DNA of 64,000 nt, taken from positions 14,867 through 78,866 of the forward strand of contig DAONFJ010000002.1 in the NCBI GenBank assembly GCA_035403545.1, written 5' to 3'. The translations under genes and the position numbers were made by a program. Below, piece after piece: positions 6,778 to 53,207 of the stretch (position 1 is its first letter; every line of letters begins with the position of its first letter). Under the pieces are notes generated by a model. That model was given only the letters and a program-made list of their open reading frames with translations. It made no database searches and was not told the origin of the DNA. Source of the stretch: Spirochaetota bacterium (GTDB lineage Bacteria; Spirochaetota; UBA4802; UBA5550).

Positions 6778-7293
6778 ATGGACGAAAAATCTTTTTTATC
6801 AAAAATGGCTGAGAGTTATAAAATTACTCTTCCCGCAAGATATGAGCAGTTTATCATTGAAAAAGAATATTTAATGTGCGAGGAGAGCCAGGCAGTCTTC
6901 ACGGGATTTATAAGCGGCCTTTATCATCTTCACTTTGTTGACGAGCTGCTCGCTGATGTTTTTAAACTCGGGGCGGCGCAGGGTATTAAAGACATTAAGG
7001 ATACCTGGACGAAAGAGTTTAATATATATATCCCTCTGGCTTATTTTGATCATCCCGAAGTTCCTGAACCGAAAGGCTTCCTTGTGTGGGATAATTCTGA
7101 AGAGATGATGCCTGTACTTATTTTTGATTTTGAAGGGCCGCGTGTTTATGCGGTTGCTGATAATCTTGATGAGTTTCTAAAAAATTTTCCTGATATACAC
7201 AACAAAGAACAGAGAAGCAGAAATGCCTCTGAACTGGCCGATAGAAAATTTGAATTCTGGAAAAAAGGTGATAGAAAAAATTTTAATTTTTAG
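6778..7293 (+). CDS. SMI1/KNR4-like protein
   Basis: N-terminal ..ITLPARYEQFI.. and C-terminal ..AVADNLDEFLKNF.. resemble the SMI1_KNR4 pattern. Weak, by eye only. Confidence 0.35.
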   Translation: MDEKSFLSKMAESYKITLPARYEQFIIEKEYLMCEESQAVFTGFISGLYHLHFVDELLADVFKLGAAQGIKDIKDTWTKEFNIYIPLAYFDHPEVPEPKGFLVWDNSEEMMPVLIFDFEGPRVYAVADNLDEFLKNFPDIHNKEQRSRNASELADRKFEFWKKGDRKNFNF

Positions 7294-7976
7294 AATCCTT
7301 TCAAAGGTTTTAAGACCGTCCCCTGGTTTCTGATTTCACGATATAGCTGACTTGCGGTAATTATAAAAAAAGGGGACACGTCTAACCCTGAACTTTTAAG
7401 AGCTTCTGCGACCCATGTATTGCATGTATTAAACAGGCAGTATCTGTACACAGATTTAAAGAAAATAATTTCACCGGAATATTTTTCTGATGTAATAAAA
7501 AGCGTATCCCCGGTATTTTTTTTAAAACTGTTTTCAATAAATCTGATTAATTTAATATACTGATCTTTCGAGAGAGTCAGCCTCACGGTATAATCACTCC
7601 AGCCGATGAAACTGTCAGCAGTATTGCTGTAACCTTCTATCCGGATTACACTTGTGTTGGGAAGAAGAACCGCTCTTGCTCCCATGCAGAAATTGTCCTT
7701 CGGATTCTGGTAGAATTTTTCCTCTCCCCATCCGATATCAGTGAATCTGAAATTTTTAAAATATTTTAACGCGGTGATTGTTTGTGAAGAATCGTCATCG
7801 ACCGGGATCACTATTCCTGTGTGAAGATTGTTGTTAATTATATAAACAGTATATTGACCGGCAGTATAACCGGTTTCATTTCCCGTATTTAAATTTTCTC
7901 TCCCTGTACATGACGCTGATATAAAAATCTGCAAAGCGGATAATAGAATCAGCAGAAATGAGTTTAGTTTTTTCAT
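7290..7976 (-). CDS. Lipoprotein, DUF2459 (TIGR02117)-like
   Basis: Signal peptide with lipobox ISASC. HTGIVIPV and DIGWGEEKFYQ resemble DUF2459 signatures. Confidence 0.45.
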   Translation of the reverse strand: MKKLNSFLLILLSALQIFISASCTGRENLNTGNETGYTAGQYTVYIINNNLHTGIVIPVDDDSSQTITALKYFKNFRFTDIGWGEEKFYQNPKDNFCMGARAVLLPNTSVIRIEGYSNTADSFIGWSDYTVRLTLSKDQYIKLIRFIENSFKKNTGDTLFITSEKYSGEIIFFKSVYRYCLFNTCNTWVAEALKSSGLDVSPFFIITASQLYREIRNQGTVLKPLKGF

Positions 7977-8022
7977 CAGAAAGTTATCCTATGATTCGAT
8001 TTACCAGGTTCAATTACACTTA

Positions 8023-8622
8023 TCAGAAAAAATATGCTTTGATACCGCTCATCATCATTTCAAGAGAGATGAATGATACGAGTACTGCCATAATTTTTTC
8101 CATCCCTTTTGTGAACTCGGTACCTAGAAACCGTTCAATATATGATGATGCCGAAAGGAGTAATGCACCGATGACGACAGCAGACAAAATAGATGACATT
8201 AAATACAGCTTATCCCATTGATATAAACCAAGATATGAGATCATTCCGAAGGTCATACTCCCCGGGCCGGCCAGCATCGGAATAGCAAGAGGAGATACAA
8301 TTATGTTCCTCAATTTTGTATGGCCGTTTTTTTCATCACCGGAATGAGTTGAGAGAATCATCTGGAAGGCAATATACAGAAGAAGTAAACCCCCGCCGAC
8401 TTTAACCGCTTCTATTGATATATTGAAATAGTTCATAATCTGTCTCCCCAGTATGGAGAAAACAAGAACTATTATGCCTGCTATAGCTGATGATGAAAAG
8501 GCTATTCTTACTCGTTCTCTTTGTGAAAATTTTTTAGTAAGAGAAATAAATAATGGAATAGTCCCAATAAAATCCATAAGTATAAACATCGGTATGAATA
8601 AGGATAAAAACTTCGTTGTCAT
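8023..8622 (-). CDS. MarC-family (UPF0056) integral membrane protein
   Basis: MDFIGTIPLFISLT motif, six hydrophobic segments. The internal ATG at 8622 has GGAG 8 nt upstream, so I prefer it to the 8667 ORF start. Confidence 0.75.
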   Translation of the reverse strand: MTTKFLSLFIPMFILMDFIGTIPLFISLTKKFSQRERVRIAFSSSAIAGIIVLVFSILGRQIMNYFNISIEAVKVGGGLLLLYIAFQMILSTHSGDEKNGHTKLRNIIVSPLAIPMLAGPGSMTFGMISYLGLYQWDKLYLMSSILSAVVIGALLLSASSYIERFLGTEFTKGMEKIMAVLVSFISLEMMMSGIKAYFF

Positions 8623-8827
8623 TTTTATTACTCCAATTGCAGCGGAAGATCGGGTTAATATAATCACTATAGACTTTAAAAATCAAATATTTTACGGATT
8701 ATAACTGGTTTAAAAATAACTGTCGGCATAATTAGTTGATAAAATTTAAATTCATTACTTGATAAAATTTTATGATTTTGTTAATGTTGTTATACGCTAA
8801 AGTCAAGATGCCAGGAGATGTAATTTT

Positions 8828-9181
8828 ATGGATGACAGAAATCAGTCCAGGGTTGTTTTCCATGTTAATGCTTCAATCGAGTATGATGGGCACACCGTTA
8901 ACGGGGATGTTGAAAATCTCAGCATAAAAGGTATATTCATAAATACTGCAGAGAAAATTCCGGTTGATACTGATGTTGATATTTCAATATATCTTTCCGG
9001 AACAACCTCCGAGTTGAGCCTTAAAATCAACGGTGTAATAGTAAGGAACGAATCGAAAGGTGTAGCAGTAAATTTCAAAGAAATTGAATTTGATTCGTTT
9101 ATTCATCTGCGGAATATTATAGAATTCAATTCGGTAAATGATTCTGAAATGATGAAGGAATTTAAAAAGACACAATCATAA
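8828..9181 (+). CDS. Single-domain PilZ c-di-GMP receptor
   Basis: RNQSR = RxxxR (8837-8851) and NLSIKG = (D/N)xSxxG (8915-8932) with canonical spacing. Confidence 0.8.
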   Translation: MDDRNQSRVVFHVNASIEYDGHTVNGDVENLSIKGIFINTAEKIPVDTDVDISIYLSGTTSELSLKINGVIVRNESKGVAVNFKEIEFDSFIHLRNIIEFNSVNDSEMMKEFKKTQS

Positions 9182-44333: not shown

Positions 44334-46130
44334 TTATAGTGATATTATTAATACGGTCAAATCATCGAGAAGGTCCTGGTCAGGATATAATTCCCTGATT
44401 TTATTTCTCATGATATTAAGCATTTCCTCCGGAGTTTTATCAATATTGCTGATAATAATTTCAGACAGTGCTGAAAATCCGATATCGATATCGAGTGTTT
44501 CTCCTCCGAGAGATTCAACCAGGCCGTCCGTAAAAAGGAAAAGAACATCTCCTTTTTCGTAAATAATTGTTTTTTCTGCATAATTAGCGGGAGTAATTAT
44601 TCCGAAAGGTTTTCCCTTTGCCTGAAGTTTTACGACTTCCAGATTTTTTCTGCGGATCAGTATCTGATCATTATGCCCGGCTGAACTGAACGTAATTATG
44701 TTTGATACTGTATCCACCAGAACGTAGAATACGGTTACGAACATGCCGTATTCACTTTCCTGAAAAATTGCGGTGTTTGAAATCTGGAAAAGCCCTGCTG
44801 GCCTATGGTTGTTTTTTGATCCGAATTTCAGTATGTTTTTAACTGTTCCGGTAAAGAGAGCAGCAGGTATTCCCTTCCCCGAAACATCCGCAATCATTAT
44901 ACCGCAATTGTAATCATCTACTTCGTAGAAGTCAAAAAAATCTCCGCCTACATGTTTCGCCGGTTCGTACAAAACTGATACAGTAATTCCATTGAAGCCG
45001 GATGGTATTTTAACCAGGTTTTTTCTCTGAATATCAGCGGCGATATCAAGTTCCTGTTTAAGTTTTTTACGTTTTTCCTCCTGCCGCCTGTCCGCGAAGG
45101 TCCTGTAAACTCCTGTCATATGGCTTATTAATGCTGAGAGAACATTCAGTTCAAAATCATCGAATAACCTTCTGTTCTTTTTATCTGTAAGATTCAGAAC
45201 TCCGGCAATCCGGTTATTGTAATAGAGAGGAACAGATACAAATGCGTTTGTTTTATATTCTTTATTTTTTTTACAGTATTCGGGGAGATCATTTTTTACG
45301 TTGCTTACATTTATCATTTTTCCGGTTTTAAACACGTGTGCTGCTATAGAATCATCGGGGATTACAGCTCCAGCCGGAACGCTTGAACCATAAGCCGCAA
45401 TGATTTCAAGCCGCTTTCTATCGGGGACAAAAAGTATAAGCGAGGCTCTTTCTACATTGAGAGATTCCGCAAGGGTTCGGACTACATTCATGAAAAAATC
45501 TTTTTCATTATCAACCAGTGCAACGGATCGTGACAGTTCATAGAGAGCGTTAAGTTCCTCGACTCTTTTTTTCAGGTCTTCATATAAAAGCCGGTTCGTA
45601 ATCGATGATGCAGATATTGTGGCAATTACTTCGAGCAGTTTCAGGTCGAGAGTTGAGAAATGATCCCTGCCTGATTTATTTACTATCTCCAGGACTCCGA
45701 CAAATTCATCCCTTGCCATCATCGGAGTGCATAGGATATTTTTTGTAACAAAACCGGTATCAAGGTCTATACCGTTGTAAAAACGTTCATCCGTGTTAAC
45801 ATCATTTACAATTATAGATTTTTTATTATTGAATACATTCCAGGCAAAACCTGAGTTTTCCGGTATGCTGATTCCCAGCATTTTTTTCATCCCTTCGTCA
45901 GTTGTGGATTTGAAGTAGAGGAGGTTCTCAGTCTGCTGATAAAGAAGGAGTGATGCCGCTTCAGCTTGAAGAATCTCTTTTGATATTTCTACGATAGAAA
46001 TATAAAGTTCCTCCAGCCCTTTTCTTGGAACAATCTCCTCAGTAATTTTAAAAAAAACTGAAATATCAATCAGGGCATGTTCTTTCAAATGTTTCTGTTC
46101 CTCTTTCTCAGAATATCGGTTTATAGTCAA
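44334..46130 (-). CDS. Tandem-GAF PP2C-type (SpoIIE-family) serine phosphatase
   Basis: Two GAF-like segments followed by GGDFFDF, ADVSGKGIPAAL and TDGLVES phosphatase motifs. Confidence 0.85.
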   Translation of the reverse strand: MTINRYSEKEEQKHLKEHALIDISVFFKITEEIVPRKGLEELYISIVEISKEILQAEAASLLLYQQTENLLYFKSTTDEGMKKMLGISIPENSGFAWNVFNNKKSIIVNDVNTDERFYNGIDLDTGFVTKNILCTPMMARDEFVGVLEIVNKSGRDHFSTLDLKLLEVIATISASSITNRLLYEDLKKRVEELNALYELSRSVALVDNEKDFFMNVVRTLAESLNVERASLILFVPDRKRLEIIAAYGSSVPAGAVIPDDSIAAHVFKTGKMINVSNVKNDLPEYCKKNKEYKTNAFVSVPLYYNNRIAGVLNLTDKKNRRLFDDFELNVLSALISHMTGVYRTFADRRQEEKRKKLKQELDIAADIQRKNLVKIPSGFNGITVSVLYEPAKHVGGDFFDFYEVDDYNCGIMIADVSGKGIPAALFTGTVKNILKFGSKNNHRPAGLFQISNTAIFQESEYGMFVTVFYVLVDTVSNIITFSSAGHNDQILIRRKNLEVVKLQAKGKPFGIITPANYAEKTIIYEKGDVLFLFTDGLVESLGGETLDIDIGFSALSEIIISNIDKTPEEMLNIMRNKIRELYPDQDLLDDLTVLIISL

Positions 46131-47058
46131 ACTGATGGATTGCGTTAATAAACCGGATAGTATGAGTCTGCTGTCTAATTACCAGAGAGTTTGTTTTTGC
46201 CCCTCCTGAAATGTACTGCACACCGGGGAGCAGTACTCCGTCAGTTACTCCTGTTATAGATATAAGAATATCATCCGTTTTAACCAGATCTTTTATTTTA
46301 TATATTTTGTCTGCGTTTCCCCTGCCGAGATTTTCAGCCACTGCTTTTTCAAAGTAATCATTGTAATACATTTTTGCCTGCATATCTCCGCCGAGGCATT
46401 TTAATCCTGCTGCGGAAATAACAGCCTCCTTCGCGCCCCCAATGCCCATAAATATATCTATTGATGCATTTTCAATTGCTGTCGAGATCACTCCTGAAAT
46501 ATCACCGTCTGTTATAAACTTTATTCTCGCACCGCATTTCCGGATTTCCTCAACCATCTGGTTATTCATATCCCTGTCAAGAACACAGATTGTCATGTCT
46601 TCAATGTATTTTCTCTTGGCCCGCGCAACTCTTTTAATATTAATGTCCGGAGGCTGATTAATATCTATTACGCCTTTTGCATCAGGGCCTACGGCAATTT
46701 TAGTCATCAGGGAGGGGGGCATTTTCATAAATGCATTTTTTCCTCCGAATGCGATGACAGCAATAGCGTTGTGACCTCCGGTCGCGCATGTCCTTTTACC
46801 TTCGAGAGGTTTGGCTGCTATATCAACCGTCATTCCGTCCCCGTTACCGACTTTTCTGCCGTCATAAAGGTACAAATCCTTATTTGCTGCACCGATTGCT
46901 ATTTCACCGTCAATATCCATCGTTTCCAGAAGTTTCCACATAGCTTCATCAGAAGCGCGGTAACACAGATCGTCATCTCCTTTACCCATATGTCTGCTTG
47001 CGTAAAGCGCTGAAAGCTCAGTAAGCCTGGTTGCCTCAAGAGTGAGGTTCCTGTTCAT
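46108..47058 (-). CDS. GlpX-family (class II fructose-1,6-bisphosphatase-like) protein with substituted active-site positions
   Basis: Collinear with GlpX along its whole length (TRLTELSAL..GKGD, DGDISG, GIGGAKEAVISAA). However GEGExDEAPML reads GAANKDLYLY and DIAVDPxEGT reads DIAAKPLEGK. Confidence 0.7.
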   Translation of the reverse strand: MNRNLTLEATRLTELSALYASRHMGKGDDDLCYRASDEAMWKLLETMDIDGEIAIGAANKDLYLYDGRKVGNGDGMTVDIAAKPLEGKRTCATGGHNAIAVIAFGGKNAFMKMPPSLMTKIAVGPDAKGVIDINQPPDINIKRVARAKRKYIEDMTICVLDRDMNNQMVEEIRKCGARIKFITDGDISGVISTAIENASIDIFMGIGGAKEAVISAAGLKCLGGDMQAKMYYNDYFEKAVAENLGRGNADKIYKIKDLVKTDDILISITGVTDGVLLPGVQYISGGAKTNSLVIRQQTHTIRFINAIHQFDYKPIF

Positions 47059-47223: not shown

Positions 47224-47252
47224 TTGACTGTATTTATGTCTCATTGTATAAT
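47224..47252 (+). promoter_or_regulatory. Near-consensus sigma70-type promoter for the ATP-grasp fusion gene
   Basis: TTGACT (47224-47229), 17-nt spacer, TATAAT (47247-47252). 30 nt upstream of the GTG at 47283. Confidence 0.6.
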
Positions 47253-47282
47253 AATGTGACATAAAACATCCGGAGAAAACCT

Positions 47283-49511
47283 GTGAAAAAAACAATAATG
47301 ATAATTGGCGGCGGACTGCTTCAGGCTCCTGTTATTACAACCGCGAAGAAGATGGGTTATCAGGTAATAGTTACTGATTATAATCCAGATGCTATTGGCA
47401 TGAAAGATGCAGATATTCCTATCGTTATGAGTACACGTGATGTACAGGGATCTGTGCGGGTCGCGAAAAGACAGAATGAAATTACACCTATCAGCGGTGT
47501 GTTGACTGTGGGGACCGATGCATCTATGACTGTTGCTGCAGTGGCGAATGCTCTTAATCTGCCCGGTATTAAATTTGATGATGCCGAAGCTGCGACAAAC
47601 AAACTTAAAATGAGAATGAGATTTAAAGAACATAATATACCATCTCCGGCATTTCTCCCCGTATGGACTCTTTCAGATGCTAAAAAAGGATGTAAAATAC
47701 TGGGATTCCCTGTGGTTATGAAGCCCTCAGATAATATGGGAGCAAGAGGGGTTATGAGAATCGATAACGCTAACCAGGTTGCCGATGCGTTTAAATTTGC
47801 CAAAAGCGCGTCACCAAGCGGTGAACTTATTATTGAGCAGTTTATGGACGGCCCTGAGTTATCAATAGATGCGATAATTTTTAATGAAGAGATTACTATT
47901 ACCGGTGTAGCGGACCGTATTATAGAATACCCTCCGAATTTTGTTGAAACAGGGCATACAATGCCGTCACATCTGAAGATTGAAATGCTTGAGGATGCCT
48001 GTGATGTTATGAGGCGTGGAGTTAAAGCACTCGGTCTTACAACCGGCGCTGCCAAGGGTGACATTAAAGTAACAAAAAGCGGGGCAATGATAGGAGAGAT
48101 TGCTGCAAGGCTTTCAGGCGGATTTATGTCCGCATATACTTATCCTCTTTCCTCGGGAGTTGATCTGATGAAAGCGATGATTGAAGTATCTCTCGGACAG
48201 GAGCCGGGTAATCTTGAACCGGTGTTCAACAGGGTTGCAATAGAGAGAGCAATTATCTGCAAACCGGGTGTCGTGAAAAAAATATCCGGCCTCGAAGAGG
48301 CTCTCAAGGTTCCCGGCATTGAAGAGATATTCCTTAATATTAAAGAGGGAGATACTGTTGTTAAACCTACATCAAACGTCGAAAAATCAGGGAACATTAT
48401 CGCGGTAGCTGATACTCTTCAGCAGGCTGAAGCAGCGGTAAAGCAGTGCATGGAATTGTTTAAAATCGAAACATCTGATGATACCGAAATTTCGATGAAA
48501 GCGATAAACGCTTCAGCAAGAGAGAAGTTTAAGAAAATATGTTATGTATGCAAGAACTGTGACGGTTATGAATGCGCCTCCGGAGTTCCCGGAATGGGCG
48601 GAACAGGGAGCGGCGAGTCTTTCAGAAGAAACGCCGATGCACTGAAGAAATTCAAGGTTATAACTACTCTCATCCATGATGATATTGTACCTGATACATC
48701 ATCTGAGATTTTCGGTAATAAGATATCTTTTCCTGTGATGGCTGCGCCGATAACAGGCTCTGTTACAAACATGAGCGGTGCGATTGAGGAACTCGATTAC
48801 AACATAGCAGTTGTCAGGGGATGCAAAAATTCGGGAACTATAGCATTTGTGGGTGACGGGGCGACTCCTGATAAATATAAAATCGGACTTGAAGCAATTA
48901 AAGAGGAGAACGGCTGGGGTATACCGATTTTCAAACCGAGAAAAGATAATAAAGAGATAATAAAGAGAATCAAGGCTGCGGAAAAGGCAGGAGCAATTGC
49001 CGTGGGAATTGATATCGACGCAATTGTATTTAAAACTATGGCAATGAGGAATCAGGAAGTCGCGCCAAAGAGTGTAAGTGAACTCCGTGAGATTAAGTCA
49101 GCAACAAATCTTCCTTTTATACTCAAAGGCATAATGAATCCAAGGGACGCAGAGATGGCATGCAAGGCCGGTGCAGATGCGATAATAGTTTCAAATCACG
49201 GCGGTAGAGTGCTTGACCAGATGCCGGGATCTATGGATGTTCTCGAAGAAATAGTTGCTGCTGTAGGCAAATCAATTACAATCATGATAGACGGAGGATT
49301 CCGTGACGGAGTGGACATTCTGAAGGCGCTGGCGCTTGGAGCTGATTTTGTTCTTATCGGCAGACCGGTTGCTATTGCGGCGGTCGGAATGGGTGTAGAG
49401 GGAACATCATTCTATCTTGATAAACTTAAGGATGAATTTAGAAAGACTATGATTCTTACAGGATGTAAGAAAGTTAAAGATATCAGCAGTGATCTTATAA
49501 GGAAAATCTGA
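47283..49511 (+). CDS. Fusion protein: ATP-grasp ligase domain + CX2CX2CX4C linker + FMN-dependent alpha-hydroxy-acid oxidase/dehydrogenase TIM barrel
   Basis: N-terminal MIIGGGLLQAPVI...FPVVMKPSDNMGARGV...ELSIDAI (ATP-grasp). CYVCKNCDGYEC (48540-48575). C-terminal IIVSNHGGRVLD and IDGGFRDGVDILKALALGADFVLIGRP. Confidence 0.8.
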   Translation: MKKTIMIIGGGLLQAPVITTAKKMGYQVIVTDYNPDAIGMKDADIPIVMSTRDVQGSVRVAKRQNEITPISGVLTVGTDASMTVAAVANALNLPGIKFDDAEAATNKLKMRMRFKEHNIPSPAFLPVWTLSDAKKGCKILGFPVVMKPSDNMGARGVMRIDNANQVADAFKFAKSASPSGELIIEQFMDGPELSIDAIIFNEEITITGVADRIIEYPPNFVETGHTMPSHLKIEMLEDACDVMRRGVKALGLTTGAAKGDIKVTKSGAMIGEIAARLSGGFMSAYTYPLSSGVDLMKAMIEVSLGQEPGNLEPVFNRVAIERAIICKPGVVKKISGLEEALKVPGIEEIFLNIKEGDTVVKPTSNVEKSGNIIAVADTLQQAEAAVKQCMELFKIETSDDTEISMKAINASAREKFKKICYVCKNCDGYECASGVPGMGGTGSGESFRRNADALKKFKVITTLIHDDIVPDTSSEIFGNKISFPVMAAPITGSVTNMSGAIEELDYNIAVVRGCKNSGTIAFVGDGATPDKYKIGLEAIKEENGWGIPIFKPRKDNKEIIKRIKAAEKAGAIAVGIDIDAIVFKTMAMRNQEVAPKSVSELREIKSATNLPFILKGIMNPRDAEMACKAGADAIIVSNHGGRVLDQMPGSMDVLEEIVAAVGKSITIMIDGGFRDGVDILKALALGADFVLIGRPVAIAAVGMGVEGTSFYLDKLKDEFRKTMILTGCKKVKDISSDLIRKI

Positions 49512-49592: not shown

Positions 49593-49621
49593 CCCCTTCT
49601 CCCGAAAAGCGGGAGAAGGGG
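49593..49621 (+). terminator. Terminator-like 12-bp GC-rich hairpin after the fusion gene
   Basis: CCCCTTCTCCCG (49593-49604) / CGGGAGAAGGGG (49610-49621) with a 5-nt loop, followed by ..ACTTTTAAT. Confidence 0.55.
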
Positions 49622-49650: not shown

Positions 49651-49687
49651 ATAAAAACCCTCTCCCGGCTGTAAGCAGGGAGAGGGT
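49651..49687 (-). terminator. Rho-independent terminator of the minus-strand acyl-CoA operon
   Basis: ACCCTCTCCC (49657-49666) / GGGAGAGGGT (49678-49687) with an 11-nt loop. On the minus strand the stem is followed by TTTTTAT. Confidence 0.65.
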
Positions 49688-49725: not shown

Positions 49726-50523
49726 TTATTTAACCTTAAACTCCGGCGATCTCTTATCAACAAACGCAGCCATACCTTCTTTCTGATCTTCCGTGGAAAA
49801 GCATAGAGCGAATACCTGATTTTCAAAAGCAATCGCTGTTTCTATATCGGTTTCAAATCCTCTGTTTATTGCCATCTTCGAATACCGGACTGCTAACTGT
49901 GCCTTTGACACAATTTTTTGAGCCATCTCCATAGATGAAGCCATAAGCTGTTCGGCAGGAACAACTTTATTGACAAGACCGATTTTTTCCGCTTCTGATG
50001 CAGGAATAATATCCGCTGTATAAATAAGTTCTCTTGCTTTTGCAACTCCGGCTAATCTTGACAGCCGGACGCATCCTGAAAAACCGGGTGTTATGCCAAG
50101 ACCGACTTCCGGCTGACCGAATTTTGCGTTTTCAGAAGCAATCCTTATGTCGCAGCACATCGCAAGTTCACACCCGCCGCCGAGTGCAAAACCGTTTACA
50201 GCAGCGATTGTAGGAATCTTAAGCTTCTGAATATTTCTGAAGACTGTAGCTCCCAGTTCGCCATATTTAAGGCCGCTGATGCTGTCGAAGTTTTTCATTT
50301 CGGTAATATCAGCTCCGGCAACAAAAGCTTTGCCTTCACCTGTAATTATAAGTACATGAATACTTTCATCACCGGAAATTTTTTCTGTTGCGTCGCTCAG
50401 TTCAAGAAGAAGTTCAGTGTTCAGAGCGTTGAGAGCCTTGGGCCTGGAGAGGGTTAGTATTCCGATATGGCCTTCTTTGATGAATTTAAGGTTACTATAA
50501 CTCATTTCAGTTATTTTTGTCAT
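49726..50523 (-). CDS. Enoyl-CoA hydratase (crotonase family)
   Basis: ITGEGKAFVAGADI, AAVNGFALGGGCELAMCCDIRIA and FGQPEVGLGI motifs. Confidence 0.9.
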   Translation of the reverse strand: MTKITEMSYSNLKFIKEGHIGILTLSRPKALNALNTELLLELSDATEKISGDESIHVLIITGEGKAFVAGADITEMKNFDSISGLKYGELGATVFRNIQKLKIPTIAAVNGFALGGGCELAMCCDIRIASENAKFGQPEVGLGITPGFSGCVRLSRLAGVAKARELIYTADIIPASEAEKIGLVNKVVPAEQLMASSMEMAQKIVSKAQLAVRYSKMAINRGFETDIETAIAFENQVFALCFSTEDQKEGMAAFVDKRSPEFKVK

Positions 50524-50643
50524 AAACAGCTCCTTGTTAAATATGAGAGCCCCCTAAACCCCCGGAAGGGGACTTTTAATTCATTTACTATAAAAAAAGG
50601 ATTTAATTGCTAATTGAATTAAGCCCGCTTCGGGGGGTTGGGG

Positions 50644-50670
50644 CCGGCACAGTGAGTTTCACCGTGCCGG
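50644..50670 (-). other. Intercistronic hairpin between the thiolase and crotonase genes
   Basis: CCGGCAC-a-GTGA / TCAC-c-GTGCCGG (11 bp, one mismatch, 3-nt loop), 9 nt after the thiolase stop. No U-tract. Confidence 0.4.
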
Positions 50671-50679
50671 CATCAAAAT

Positions 50680-51966
50680 CTATCTTTCGAAAACCATCGC
50701 CATTCCCATACCGCCGCCGATACACATGGTAACTATACCGGTTGAGAAATTTTTTCTTTTCATCTGATACATTGTGGTGACAGCCATTCTGGCCCCTGTA
50801 CAGCCGATCGGATGCCCAAGTGATATCCCGCTTCCAAGCTGATTTGGAAATTCATTATCCAGGCCGAGTTCTCTGAAGCATCCTATTGCCTGGGAAGCGA
50901 ATGCTTCATTTACTTCAACCATGTCCAGATCCTTTATTGTCATACCTGCAAGTTTAAGTGCTCTTCTTACAGCAGGGACAGGACCAAGTCCCATGTATGC
51001 GGGATCTACTCCGCCTGTCGCGAAAGACTTAATTTTTACTATAACTTCCAGGCCGAGCTCTTTCGCTTTTTCTGCGCTCATCATAAGCACAGCAGCAGCA
51101 CCGTCATTTATGCCTGATGCATTAGCCGCAGTTACGGTTCCGTCTTTTTTGAATGCCGGCTTCATCTGGCCCATTTTTTCAAGAGTAGTGTCCATAGGCC
51201 TTTCGTCAGTATCAACTATTATATCACCTTTTCTGGAAGGTATTATCACCGGAACAATTTCATCTTTAAACAGTCCGTCTTTAATTGCTTTCAACGCTCT
51301 CTGATGGCTCTGCAGCCCAAGTTTATCCTGTTCCATTCTGCTTATGCCATAGAGTTCAGCTATATTTTCCGCTGTAATACCCATATGGTATCCGTTGAAT
51401 ATTTCATACAAACCGTCATATACCATAAGGTCATGAATATCACCCACGCCTGTGAGTTCCATCCTATGTCCCCATCTTGCTTTTTTCAGTGCAAGTGGAG
51501 TATTGCTCATGCTCTCCATCCCGCCGGCTACAACGACATCTGACTGTCCGGTCATGATTGCCTGAGCTGCCATTGCTATTGCTTTAAGCCCTGAACCGCA
51601 GACTTTATTTATTGTACAACCGGCAGCCTCTTTAGGAATTCCCGCATAAATATGAGCCTGCCTTCCGGGATTCTGCCCCTGTGCAGCCTGCAGAACGCAT
51701 CCCATTACAGTTTCATCTACCGTAATTTCTTTCGCGCCCGGGTCGTATTTATATCCCTCTTTTTCAATATTGATCTGCCCTTTCCCTTTTAGTTTATCAG
51801 GTGCAAATTCATTCTGTTCTTTTCCTGGTACTGGTTTTAAATTTATTTTTTTGAATACTTCTCTCATAACAAGAGAACCCATTTCAATCGCTGATACATC
51901 TTTTAAAGAACCACCGAAAGAACCGATTGAGGTTCTGGCACCGCTTACTATTACTACTTCTTTCAT
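50680..51966 (-). CDS. Acetyl-CoA C-acetyltransferase (thiolase II) with an N-terminal-region insertion
   Basis: NKVCGSGLKA (acyl-Cys), GHPIGCTGAR and CIGGGMGMAMVFE motifs. 428 aa, with about 36 extra residues at aa 46-82. Confidence 0.9.
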   Translation of the reverse strand: MKEVVIVSGARTSIGSFGGSLKDVSAIEMGSLVMREVFKKINLKPVPGKEQNEFAPDKLKGKGQINIEKEGYKYDPGAKEITVDETVMGCVLQAAQGQNPGRQAHIYAGIPKEAAGCTINKVCGSGLKAIAMAAQAIMTGQSDVVVAGGMESMSNTPLALKKARWGHRMELTGVGDIHDLMVYDGLYEIFNGYHMGITAENIAELYGISRMEQDKLGLQSHQRALKAIKDGLFKDEIVPVIIPSRKGDIIVDTDERPMDTTLEKMGQMKPAFKKDGTVTAANASGINDGAAAVLMMSAEKAKELGLEVIVKIKSFATGGVDPAYMGLGPVPAVRRALKLAGMTIKDLDMVEVNEAFASQAIGCFRELGLDNEFPNQLGSGISLGHPIGCTGARMAVTTMYQMKRKNFSTGIVTMCIGGGMGMAMVFER

Positions 51967-52043
51967 TAAGTTTCCTCCGGAAAAATTATTTGTGAACTCT
52001 CCCTGTCCTCAACTTCAGAACAGAGTTTTTTATCATTCTAAAC

Positions 52044-53207
52044 CTATTCAGTAAATTCTGCAAGTACATTTAACGCAATTACCAGTCTCTGAATTTCTGA
52101 AGTACCTTCATAAATTTCAGTTATCCTTGCATCTCTGTAAAGCCTTTCCGCGATATACTCTTTTACATATCCGTACCCGCCATGGATCTGAATACATTTG
52201 TGTGCGCATCTATGTGCACATTCAGATGCATATAGTTTAGCCATAGCCGCGTATTTACCCGCAGGGCGCCGGTTTTTCCCATTTTTTGAGAGAATATCGG
52301 CAGCCTTATAAACGAGAAGCCTTGATGCTTCAATTTCAGTTGCCATATCCGCGATCATCCACTGAATCGCCTGAAGCTTGCCTATAGCCGCTCCGAACTG
52401 TTCCCTTATATTCGCATACTTTGCCGCTTCTTCAAGAGCAGCCTGAGCTATACCAAGCGCCTGGGCAGCTATACCGACCCGTCCTCCGTCAAGTGTGTGC
52501 ATGGCAATTTTAAATCCTTCACCCGGTTCTCCGAGCATTCTTCCTTCGGGTATTTTACAGTCCTGATATACCATTTCTGTTGTTGAGGACGCGCATATGC
52601 CAAGTTTATCTTCAACTTTTCCTACGGTAAAACCGGGATCGCCTTTTTCTATTATGAAAAAAGATGTATTTTTATTTTTCAATGCATCTTTATCGGTAAC
52701 TGCCAGAGTTACATGCACATCCGCATACCCTCCGTTTGTGATGAAATTTTTTGTGCCGTTGAGAGTATAGTCATTTCCGGTTTTAACCGCCATTGTTTTT
52801 GTACCGCCGGAGTCTGATCCCGCACTCGGTTCCGTAATTGCAAATGCCCCGATATGTTCACCTGTACAGAGCTTGGGGAGATACTTTTTTTTCTGCTCTT
52901 CTGTTCCAAAATAATAGATAGGGGAGAGGCATAGAGAGTTGTGAGCTGACACTATAACTCCGGATGAAGCGCAGACTCTGGAAATTTCTTCAACAGCAAT
53001 GGCATATGAAACATAATCCATGCCCGCGCCATTATATTGCTCCGGGTAAACAACTCCCATTATACCTAGCTCTCCAAGTTTTCTTGTTGTCTCAAGAGGG
53101 AATTTATGGGTTTTGTCTATCTCAACAGCCTGTTCTCTGAGTTCTTTTTCCGCGAAACCACGGCACATATCACGCACCATCAATTGCTCTTCTGATAATT
53201 CAAACAT
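52044..53207 (-). CDS. Acyl-CoA dehydrogenase (short-chain/butyryl-CoA type)
   Basis: AFAITEPSAGSD, catalytic YEGTSEIQ, 387 aa. Confidence 0.9.
   Translation of the reverse strand: MFELSEEQLMVRDMCRGFAEKELREQAVEIDKTHKFPLETTRKLGELGIMGVVYPEQYNGAGMDYVSYAIAVEEISRVCASSGVIVSAHNSLCLSPIYYFGTEEQKKKYLPKLCTGEHIGAFAITEPSAGSDSGGTKTMAVKTGNDYTLNGTKNFITNGGYADVHVTLAVTDKDALKNKNTSFFIIEKGDPGFTVGKVEDKLGICASSTTEMVYQDCKIPEGRMLGEPGEGFKIAMHTLDGGRVGIAAQALGIAQAALEEAAKYANIREQFGAAIGKLQAIQWMIADMATEIEASRLLVYKAADILSKNGKNRRPAGKYAAMAKLYASECAHRCAHKCIQIHGGYGYVKEYIAERLYRDARITEIYEGTSEIQRLVIALNVLAEFTE

Follow-up and report, generated by a model that had tools for sequence, protein, structure and literature searches.

A stretch of 64,000 nucleotides from a Spirochaetota bacterium (assembly GCA_035403545.1, contig DAONFJ010000002.1, positions 14,867 to 78,866), which as a whole is called the window here, contains a gene at 47283-49511 for a protein in which an ATP-grasp ligase is fused, through a four-cysteine motif (Cys4), to a barrel of the flavin mononucleotide (FMN)-dependent alpha-hydroxy-acid dehydrogenase type. 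The fusion protein is a very widespread and uncharacterised bifunctional enzyme that is built from two known enzyme kinds. The explanation that we favour, and hold tentatively, is that it may prepare a 2-hydroxy or 2-oxo acid and attach it by ligation to a pseudaminic-type nonulosonic acid (NulO) as the N-acyl group there, a reading that is based on the domains, their conserved residues and the gene neighbourhoods of the family. The parts of the gene are the following.

47283..49511, plus strand: the ATP-grasp/Cys4/FMN_dh fusion gene (P0001), one open reading frame of 742 amino acids (aa) with a GTG start and zero internal stops
47283..48482, plus strand: ATP-grasp carboxylate-amine ligase domain of the L-amino-acid-ligase type, residues 1-400, from Pfam, PDB and Foldseek
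48483..48539, plus strand: linker, residues 401-419, with one helix (405-416) in the secondary structure of the AlphaFold2 model
48540..48575, plus strand: CYVCKNCDGYEC, the CX2CX2CX4C motif, residues 420-431 (C420, C423, C426, C431), followed by an invariant P436-G437
48588..49508, plus strand: FMN_dh (alpha-hydroxy-acid dehydrogenase-type) TIM barrel, residues 436-742 (PF01070, E 6.5e-72)
49191..49208, plus strand: S637-N-H639-G-G-R642 with the catalytic His and substrate-binding Arg of the family; H639, G640, G641 and R642 are invariant in 36 fusions

An initial annotation, made from the letters alone, had described a single three-part frame of 742 aa, and this is what we found, stop-free and with both the Pfam domains (ATP-grasp_3/4 and FMN_dh) and the cysteine motif in place. 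Homologues number more than 1,200. The best 120 database homologues are all full length (709-767 aa, 69-100% identity), nearly all of them labelled Spirochaetota or Leptospirales metagenome-assembled genomes (MAGs). A match is present in 287 of 301 sampled genomes of the phylum Spirochaetota, and stop-free, full-length fusions with 41-78% identity occur in most spirochaete families, those of the Leptospira-like family being about 51% identical to the window protein. Full-length fusions are also found in Nitrospinota, in one Dependentiae MAG and in one groundwater bacterium, and among the cluster representatives of an exhaustive search they reach down to about 30% identity. An assembly join of two genes, which had been raised as a concern, or a frameshift artefact is ruled out: hundreds of assemblies, made independently of one another, conserve the fusion, full-length homologues occur across the phylum, and there are 44 fusion-containing loci from independent assemblies. 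The initial annotation needs correction in that the fusion is not rare but near-universal in Spirochaetota and present in Nitrospinota as well. The Leptospira interrogans orthologue, LA2659, is annotated as hypothetical only. Its expression was up about 3-fold in macrophage co-culture (PMC2964297).

The ligase half was rightly recognised from the start. Residues 1-400 comprise a pre-ATP-grasp, an ATP-grasp and a LAL_C2 part; ATP-grasp_4 and ATP-grasp_3 match residues 104-281 (ATP-grasp_4 with 53 bits against a Pfam cutoff of 27) and LAL_C2 matches residues 325-397 (65 bits against 29.4). Sequence matches in the PDB were 3vot (E 2e-27), 4dim and 4wd3, and the structural matches from Foldseek were BL00235 (3VOT, template modelling (TM) score 0.87), 4DIM, RizA and BacD. 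Within a set of 36 fusions that span 29-92% identity, K107, K147, E222, R276, G279 and G280 are invariant and E185, E192, D260 and E272 near-invariant (at least 90%); the role of each in nucleotide or Mg binding we take from general knowledge of the family. A LAL_C2 match above the gathering score, the conserved Lys pair, the acidic Mg ligands and the Arg-x-x-Gly-Gly motif place this half among the L-amino acid ligases (BL00235/3VOT; RizA, 4WD3; BacD/YwfE, 3VMM and 3WNZ), with which it has the three-part ATP-grasp fold, the LAL_C2 domain and the ATP- and Mg-binding Lys, Glu and Arg in common. It is, however, only 18-24% identical to them and joined to a flavoenzyme, and its own clade is found in NulO sugar clusters and not in peptide-antibiotic ones. 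That operon context argues for an acceptor other than a second free L-amino acid, and the nucleophile is probably an amino sugar and not an amino acid.

The C-terminal half belongs to family PF01070 by a score far above the Pfam cutoff (242.9 bits against 24.9), by its TIM-barrel fold and by the catalytic His, Arg, Lys and Asp. It matches HAO1 and glycolate oxidase in the PDB (1e-40 to 1e-36) as well as L-lactate oxidase (6e-35, a single-domain chain), and mandelate oxidase in Foldseek (TM score 0.77). The signatures VSNHGGRxLD and DGGxRxGxDxxKAxALGA, which had been noted earlier, are present as VSNHGGRVLD (residues 636-645) and DGGFRDGVDILKALALGA (residues 670-687). K615, H639, R642 and D579 correspond to Lys230, His254, Arg257 and Asp157 of glycolate oxidase and are invariant in the 36 fusions, and so are the FMN-phosphate motifs of the barrel. 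The fusion thus has its barrel in common with the alpha-hydroxy-acid oxidases and dehydrogenases (glycolate oxidase/HAO1, L-lactate oxidase, LldD, Hmo, flavocytochrome b2 and MftD), and it shares with them the FMN-phosphate motifs, the His and Arg of SNHGGR, the Lys of the KG motif and the Asp of the DxD motif.

In other respects the barrel has departed from these enzymes. Tyr24, Tyr129 and Arg164 are the canonical carboxylate- and transition-state-binding residues, and unlike the alpha-hydroxy-acid oxidases the fusion lacks all three: in the alignment with HAO1 and lactate oxidase, Tyr24 is replaced by the invariant P436 and Tyr129 by P548, which is variable, there is no conserved Arg at Arg164, and loop 4, after D579 of the DxD motif, is shortened, although the alignment of the N-terminal half of the barrel is weak (18-22 bits) and these three equivalences are tentative. 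Another difference is the invariant N-terminal CX2CX2CX4C segment. The scores for the NCBIfam equivalogs are all far below their cutoffs (L-lactate oxidase 132 against 645, LldD 116 against 550, MftD 119 against 471, IDI-2 53 against 281), and the barrel is for that reason a distinct subfamily. The label of a glycolate or L-lactate oxidase-type barrel therefore holds for the fold and the catalytic core but not in the sense of an ordinary oxidase; the loss of the three canonical residues, with Cys4 at the place of Tyr24, points to a divergent dehydrogenase instead. In the barrel the machinery for dehydrogenation is thus retained, the substrate site is rebuilt, and a metal or Fe-S centre is probable.

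The cysteine motif itself lies at nt 48540-48575, exactly where the initial annotation had put it. Its four cysteines are invariant in the 36 fusions, and it is found in 239 of 255 distinct fusions and in 74 of 75 stand-alone FMN_dh homologues, and these 74 keep SNHGGR as well. In the alignment to HAO1 the cysteines immediately precede the canonical Tyr24 position, and from this alignment, not from the structural model, they are probably situated at the entrance of the active site. The spacing CX2CX2CX4C differs from that of textbook 4Fe-4S motifs, and a conserved set of Cys ligands, as in the iron-sulfur flavoproteins with their Fe-S centre beside FMN, is present; the motif would probably hold a metal or Fe-S centre. 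A structure prediction had been called for, and the AlphaFold2 model made from 36 diverse fusions gives both domain folds with confidence (mean predicted local distance difference test score (pLDDT) 90.6), while their mutual arrangement is uncertain at a predicted TM score of 0.62. The pLDDT is low at Cys4 (53-77), as expected for a cofactor-dependent loop. Pyruvate carboxylase also turned up among the Foldseek matches, but that relationship was rejected, because nothing but the order of an ATP-grasp followed by a TIM barrel is shared, with a root-mean-square deviation of 22-25 Å. In one homologue (P0124, 927 aa) there is a low-complexity insert of about 180 residues, rich in Lys, Glu and Ser, in the linker between the ligase and Cys4, and the two halves can therefore tolerate a long flexible tether.

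A survey of fused and split forms, which the initial annotation had suggested, showed that the fusion is phylum-wide and that both halves also exist on their own. Three further forms turned up among the cluster representatives of the exhaustive search: Cys4-FMN_dh proteins that stand alone (300-350 aa, 43-56% identity), ATP-grasp proteins that stand alone (about 400 aa), and a large group of ATP-grasp proteins with an extension of about 140 aa. The stand-alone Cys4-FMN_dh proteins are widespread in strict anaerobes, namely Clostridium (including C. difficile and C. sporogenes), Desulfobacterota and Nitrospirota, and this makes O2 an unlikely electron acceptor. Most of the genes around them have housekeeping functions, but Clostridium and Proteiniclasticum have them directly upstream of ptb-iorAB (phosphate butyryltransferase and indolepyruvate:ferredoxin oxidoreductase). 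These genes represent 2-oxo-acid:ferredoxin chemistry, and such a context agrees with an anaerobic redox enzyme that acts on 2-hydroxy/2-oxo acids and has ferredoxin, not O2, as its partner. A genome that carries a stand-alone ATP-grasp gene (G024) also has a second, far more divergent ATP-grasp-FMN_dh fusion paralogue (contig C12, 27954-30095, locus L146) with a frame of 732 aa and an identity of 28% and 35% to the halves of the window protein.

Both Cys4 and SNHGGR are kept in 225 of the 255 distinct fusions. Seven of the 255 have SNRGGR, with His replaced by Arg, and belong to a spirochaete subgroup that keeps Cys4 (e.g. L202 1791-4058 and L214 6995-9238). The fusions of Brachyspira (717-723 aa; L198, L203, L207, L221, L226, L228 and L230, with the frame at about 6990-9160) have a well-kept ligase with about 58% identity and a degenerate barrel in which Cys4 is gone and SNHGGR has become SNNNKY, so that the C-terminal part looks like a pseudo-enzyme domain. 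Because of these variants we regard the ligase as the constant element of the family, and the redox half as modified or dispensable in a few lineages.

According to the initial annotation the context gives no substrate clue, and this is true for the window, where the neighbours of the fusion do not suggest any pathway, but comparative context ties the ligase half to NulO biosynthesis. There is no universal neighbour across 46 diverse fusion loci. At five loci from Gemmatimonadales and Candidatus Glassbacteria, a stand-alone ATP-grasp protein that is 52-53% identical to the N-terminal half of the window protein is encoded in the order PseG-like, ATP-grasp, NeuB/PseI-like. All five have this order, and four of them also have a glycosyltransferase of family GT9 and a PseF-like cytidylyltransferase upstream, the fifth (L170) ending at a contig edge; no acetyltransferase was seen in the annotated block of these operons. 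In the phylogenies these ATP-grasp proteins are sister to the Nitrospinota fusion, within the clade that holds the window protein (FastTree supports 97 and 91; IQ-TREE supports by the Shimodaira-Hasegawa-like approximate likelihood ratio test 94 and 90).

The sister clade, in which the ATP-grasp domain carries the extension, is found in operons of a PseF-like gene, a gene for a methyltransferase-domain protein (583-586 aa) and the ATP-grasp gene in three spirochaete genomes (L255, L256 and L258), and in two further cases (P0265 and G110) the extension-clade ATP-grasp is part of one polypeptide of 1352-1382 aa, where by our reading the order of parts appears to be PseF-like, PseG-like, methyltransferase, ATP-grasp. 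The fusion itself abuts a gene for a PseG-like plus methyltransferase protein on the same strand in one spirochaete family (L165); in another (L153) the gene before it is for a methyltransferase of that kind, and the two form a tight operon together with a CsaB-like pyruvyl transferase gene; and in a Nitrospinota genome (L174) a PseG-like gene (score 138 bits, cutoff 153) is located two genes upstream of it. In a Treponema-like genome (G225, L257 5342-11291) the ATP-grasp-plus-extension gene stands between genes for a pallilysin-domain protein and an N-acetylmuramoyl-L-alanine amidase, with the flagellar sheath gene flaA two genes further on.

The presence of NeuB follows the same lines. NeuB (PF03102) was found in 49 of 51 sampled spirochaete genomes, and it is absent from all five sampled genomes of at least 90% completeness that have no ATP-grasp match (families f36, f47 and f48); the other genomes without such a match are only 57-88% complete. 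The genome of the window has NeuB (contig C18), a PseF-like/PseG-like pair (C56) and a methyltransferase of the cluster type (C35), each among unrelated genes, so that these NulO genes and the fusion are spread over four contigs, and with NulO genes scattered like this a solitary fusion gene is to be expected. Most Nitrospinota loci examined have an aldolase-like gene of the HpcH/HpaI type directly 3' of the fusion (18 loci with the gene), and in an unclassified bacterium (L234) such a gene precedes it. Members of the HpcH/HpaI family make 4-hydroxy-2-oxo acids from pyruvate. Another aldolase, of a different family, is found beside a stand-alone Cys4-FMN_dh of 308 aa in genome G015 (L261 6887-10799), in a tight same-strand run of a class II aldolase (PF00596, 395 aa), two proteins without Pfam domains, the FMN_dh and a pseudouridine synthase.

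The flagellin glycan of Treponema denticola is a pseudaminic-type sugar with an N-acyl group other than acetyl (PMC13439194). This group is formally a 2-O-methylated, 2-reduced 2-keto-3-deoxy-hexonate. To make and install it, an aldolase product (a 4-hydroxy-2-oxo acid), a 2-oxo/2-hydroxy-acid oxidoreductase, an O-methyltransferase and an amide-forming ligase are needed, and it is because those four activities are found fused or adjacent in the gene family of the fusion that we propose a combination of redox step and ligation on a NulO. The FMN barrel would interconvert a 2-oxo acid and the matching 2-hydroxy acid; H639 would be the base, R642 and K615 would bind the substrate and the flavin, and electrons would pass through a metal or Fe-S centre, probably at Cys4, to a partner other than O2. 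The ATP-grasp domain would then phosphorylate the carboxylate of the acid with ATP, and the resulting acyl-phosphate would be captured by an amine, the best candidate being the 4-amino group of a UDP-4-amino-4,6-dideoxy-hexose intermediate, which in the canonical pathway is acylated by PseH with acetyl-CoA. Fusing the two domains would keep acid processing and ligation together, and the earlier suggestion of a coupled two-step reaction can stand in this form. The NulO would likely be used for glycosylating flagellin or other surface proteins. The analysis establishes the domain identities, the residues kept and lost, the distribution over genomes and the NulO neighbourhoods of orthologues and relatives; from these we infer the substrates, the identity of the acid in the host, the order and direction of the steps, the electron partner, the metal content and the link to flagellin.

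If this is correct, the fusion would carry out the same step as PseH, the N-acylation of a 4-amino sugar, but from ATP and a free acid where PseH, a GNAT N-acetyltransferase, uses acyl-CoA; the two are not homologous and the comparison would be one of functional analogy only. The proposed sequence of reactions also resembles that of VanH and VanA, where a 2-oxo acid is turned into a 2-hydroxy acid and then ligated by an ATP-grasp enzyme, but VanH, unlike the flavin domain of the fusion, is a NAD-dependent, D-specific dehydrogenase on a separate protein, and VanA is an ester-forming ligase of the Ddl type whose homology to the fusion is limited to the ATP-grasp fold. Readings of the fusion as a VanH/VanA-like or a PanE/PanC-like system were considered and rejected, as they have no contextual support. 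A bolder version of our proposal, and a doubtful one, is that the fusion could be the missing acyl-branch enzyme of spirochaete flagellin glycosylation, in which a so far unrecognised Fe-S/FMN branch of the 2-hydroxy-acid oxidase superfamily would use neither NAD(P)H nor O2 in reducing a 2-oxo-3-deoxy sugar acid, and the ATP-grasp domain would replace PseH in placing that acid on the UDP-4-amino sugar. In this version there would be an ATP-dependent, CoA-independent route to N-acyl NulOs other than the acetylated ones, and since T. denticola requires the glycosylation of flagellin for filament assembly, the motility of Leptospira and Treponema could depend on that route.

Several observations weigh against a role in NulO acylation. 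There is no NulO neighbour in the window or at most spirochaete fusion loci, and the nesting of the NulO-cluster ligases in the fusion clade, with its supports of 90-94, is moderately supported and not decisive. Those Gemmatimonadales genomes have no FMN_dh homologue, and a flavin step is therefore no general requirement of the NulO pathway; it is for the ligase half that the link to NulO is strongest; the flavin half by itself has no such association, and it occurs as a stand-alone protein in organisms and contexts without an evident NulO link. The redox step seems to be dispensable or different in Brachyspira and in the His-to-Arg subgroup, and with Tyr24, Tyr129 and Arg164 lost the substrate of the flavin domain is not inferable from its family. 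The joint absence of NeuB and the ligase comes from three families, and in two of these the genomes are strongly reduced; the HpcH-like gene is absent from the genome of the window and present in only 7 of 26 relatives. In the literature searched there is no paper linking ATP-grasp ligases to NulO acylation (the sole co-mention is an entry in a reference list) and none characterising the fusion, which therefore does not belong to an already characterised family, the second of the two conditions that the initial annotation had named as refuting it.

Among the other explanations, the one that we take most seriously, though it seems rather unlikely, is a free-standing small-molecule enzyme with no relation to NulO, in which the ligase would join an amino acid or amine to a 2-oxo or 2-hydroxy acid made by the flavin domain, giving an N-(2-hydroxyacyl)- or N-(2-oxoacyl)-amino acid or a dipeptide-like metabolite, e.g. 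an osmolyte, a signal or a cofactor precursor. LAL_C2 and the best structural matches are those of dipeptide ligases, the fusion is solitary among housekeeping genes in most genomes, and the near-universal conservation in the phylum fits core metabolism, but such an enzyme would leave the repeated neighbourhoods and gene fusions with PseF, PseG, NeuB and methyltransferases unexplained, as well as the joint absence with NeuB. The steps may also be taken in the reverse order on a NulO, so that an L-amino acid is first ligated onto the sugar amine and the flavin domain then oxidatively deaminates or dehydrogenates the amide-bound alpha-position, yielding a 2-oxoacyl group that is later reduced to 2-hydroxyacyl. 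MftD acts on an alpha-amino amide, and it is among the best NCBIfam matches of the barrel, albeit with a score well short of the equivalog cutoff; the loss of Tyr24 and Arg164, which bind free carboxylates, would suit an amide-bound substrate; the ligase family normally activates amino acids; and the Gemmatimonadales version has no flavin domain. What makes us consider this order improbable is that stand-alone Cys4-FMN_dh proteins, which are without the same residues, adjoin genes for 2-oxo-acid:ferredoxin oxidoreductase with no ligase, which points to free acids.

The barrel could also serve for structure, oligomerisation or regulation (e.g. redox sensing), with the ligase as the only catalytic part, and the Brachyspira proteins, with their retained ligase and lost Cys4 and SNHGGR, and the seven SNRGGR sequences speak for this. 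For the family as a whole this is very unlikely, however, as the 225 fusions keep the FMN-binding and catalytic set together with Cys4 down to 29% identity, which indicates selection for catalysis in most lineages, that of the window included. A role in the modification of tRNA wobble uridine (xm5s2U) or of other RNA is about the least probable of all. It is suggested by mnmA, which in the Leptospira-like family (L127, L128 and L129) is the next gene upstream on the strand of the fusion, only about 20 nt away from it, by mnmE, which adjoins the fusion at four loci from three other families, by RluA-like genes near it at four loci, and by a DUF523/TudS-like gene beside the stand-alone copies at 15 Clostridium loci. 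These are housekeeping genes, though, whose adjacency is not conserved between families; the fusion has no tRNA-binding domain, nothing in the chemistry would call for a 2-hydroxy-acid dehydrogenase in such a role, and the NulO associations, in contrast, include actual gene fusions. At the 15 Clostridium-type loci DUF523 is immediately upstream of FMN_dh, in a block of U32 peptidase, MutS2, DUF523 and FMN_dh. The window has a DUF523/2-thiouracil-desulfurase-like gene of its own (PF04463, 41024-41488, minus strand), 6 kb from the fusion, which may be a coincidence or a real link.

The signals and genes around the fusion gene are these.

47224..47252, plus strand: sigma-70-like promoter, TTGACT, a spacer of 17 nt and TATAAT, a candidate by consensus match alone (11 of 12 positions)
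47272..47275, plus strand: GGAG ribosome-binding site, 7 nt 5' of the GTG, read off the sequence
49593..49621, plus strand: GC-rich hairpin 3' of the stop codon with a perfect 12-bp stem (dG -25.7 kcal/mol, z -3.5)
46108-47058, minus strand: glpX-like gene, the divergent neighbour, a homologue of GlpX-type class II fructose-1,6-bisphosphatase (PF03320, E 1.9e-105)
49726-50523, minus strand: enoyl-CoA hydratase gene, the convergent neighbour, adjoining the fusion on its 3' side

The near-consensus promoter proposed in the initial annotation agrees with what we see, and lies within a divergent intergenic region of 224 bp that the fusion shares with the glpX-like gene. As for the proposed terminator, the hairpin probably is one, but the T-run begins about 7 nt beyond the stem and does not adjoin it directly, which is why a scan for consensus terminators missed it. 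With the glpX-like gene divergent and the enoyl-CoA hydratase gene convergent, the fusion gene is most likely transcribed on its own, in line with the earlier description of it as monocistronic. A second GC-rich hairpin (49659-49687), followed by a T-run on the minus strand, probably terminates the operon for crotonase, thiolase and acyl-CoA dehydrogenase that converges on the fusion (49726-53207, minus strand). The other neighbours in the window are genes for a SpoIIE/GAF phosphatase, a membrane protein similar to lysylphosphatidylglycerol synthase and an HI0933-like flavoprotein, the DUF523 gene, and the crotonase/thiolase/acyl-CoA dehydrogenase set. Within the order of the window, the glpX-like gene adjoins the fusion at 33 of 44 loci; other spirochaete families do not have this adjacency.

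The fusion is one of the few large and strongly conserved spirochaete proteins that lack a function, and the lineages of Leptospira and Treponema are included in this. If our proposal is true, it names the enzyme that gives bacterial sialic-acid-like sugars their unusual acyl groups, and it would provide a case of sugar tailoring in which an ATP-grasp enzyme is the alternative to acyl-CoA transferases. The fold of glycolate and lactate oxidases would then have a Cys4 subfamily, possibly with an Fe-S centre, in anaerobes, and there would be a concrete candidate gene for the acyl portion of the flagellin glycan, on which T. denticola depends for assembling its flagella. Should the role in NulO biosynthesis be wrong, the family is still a widespread ligase-dehydrogenase.

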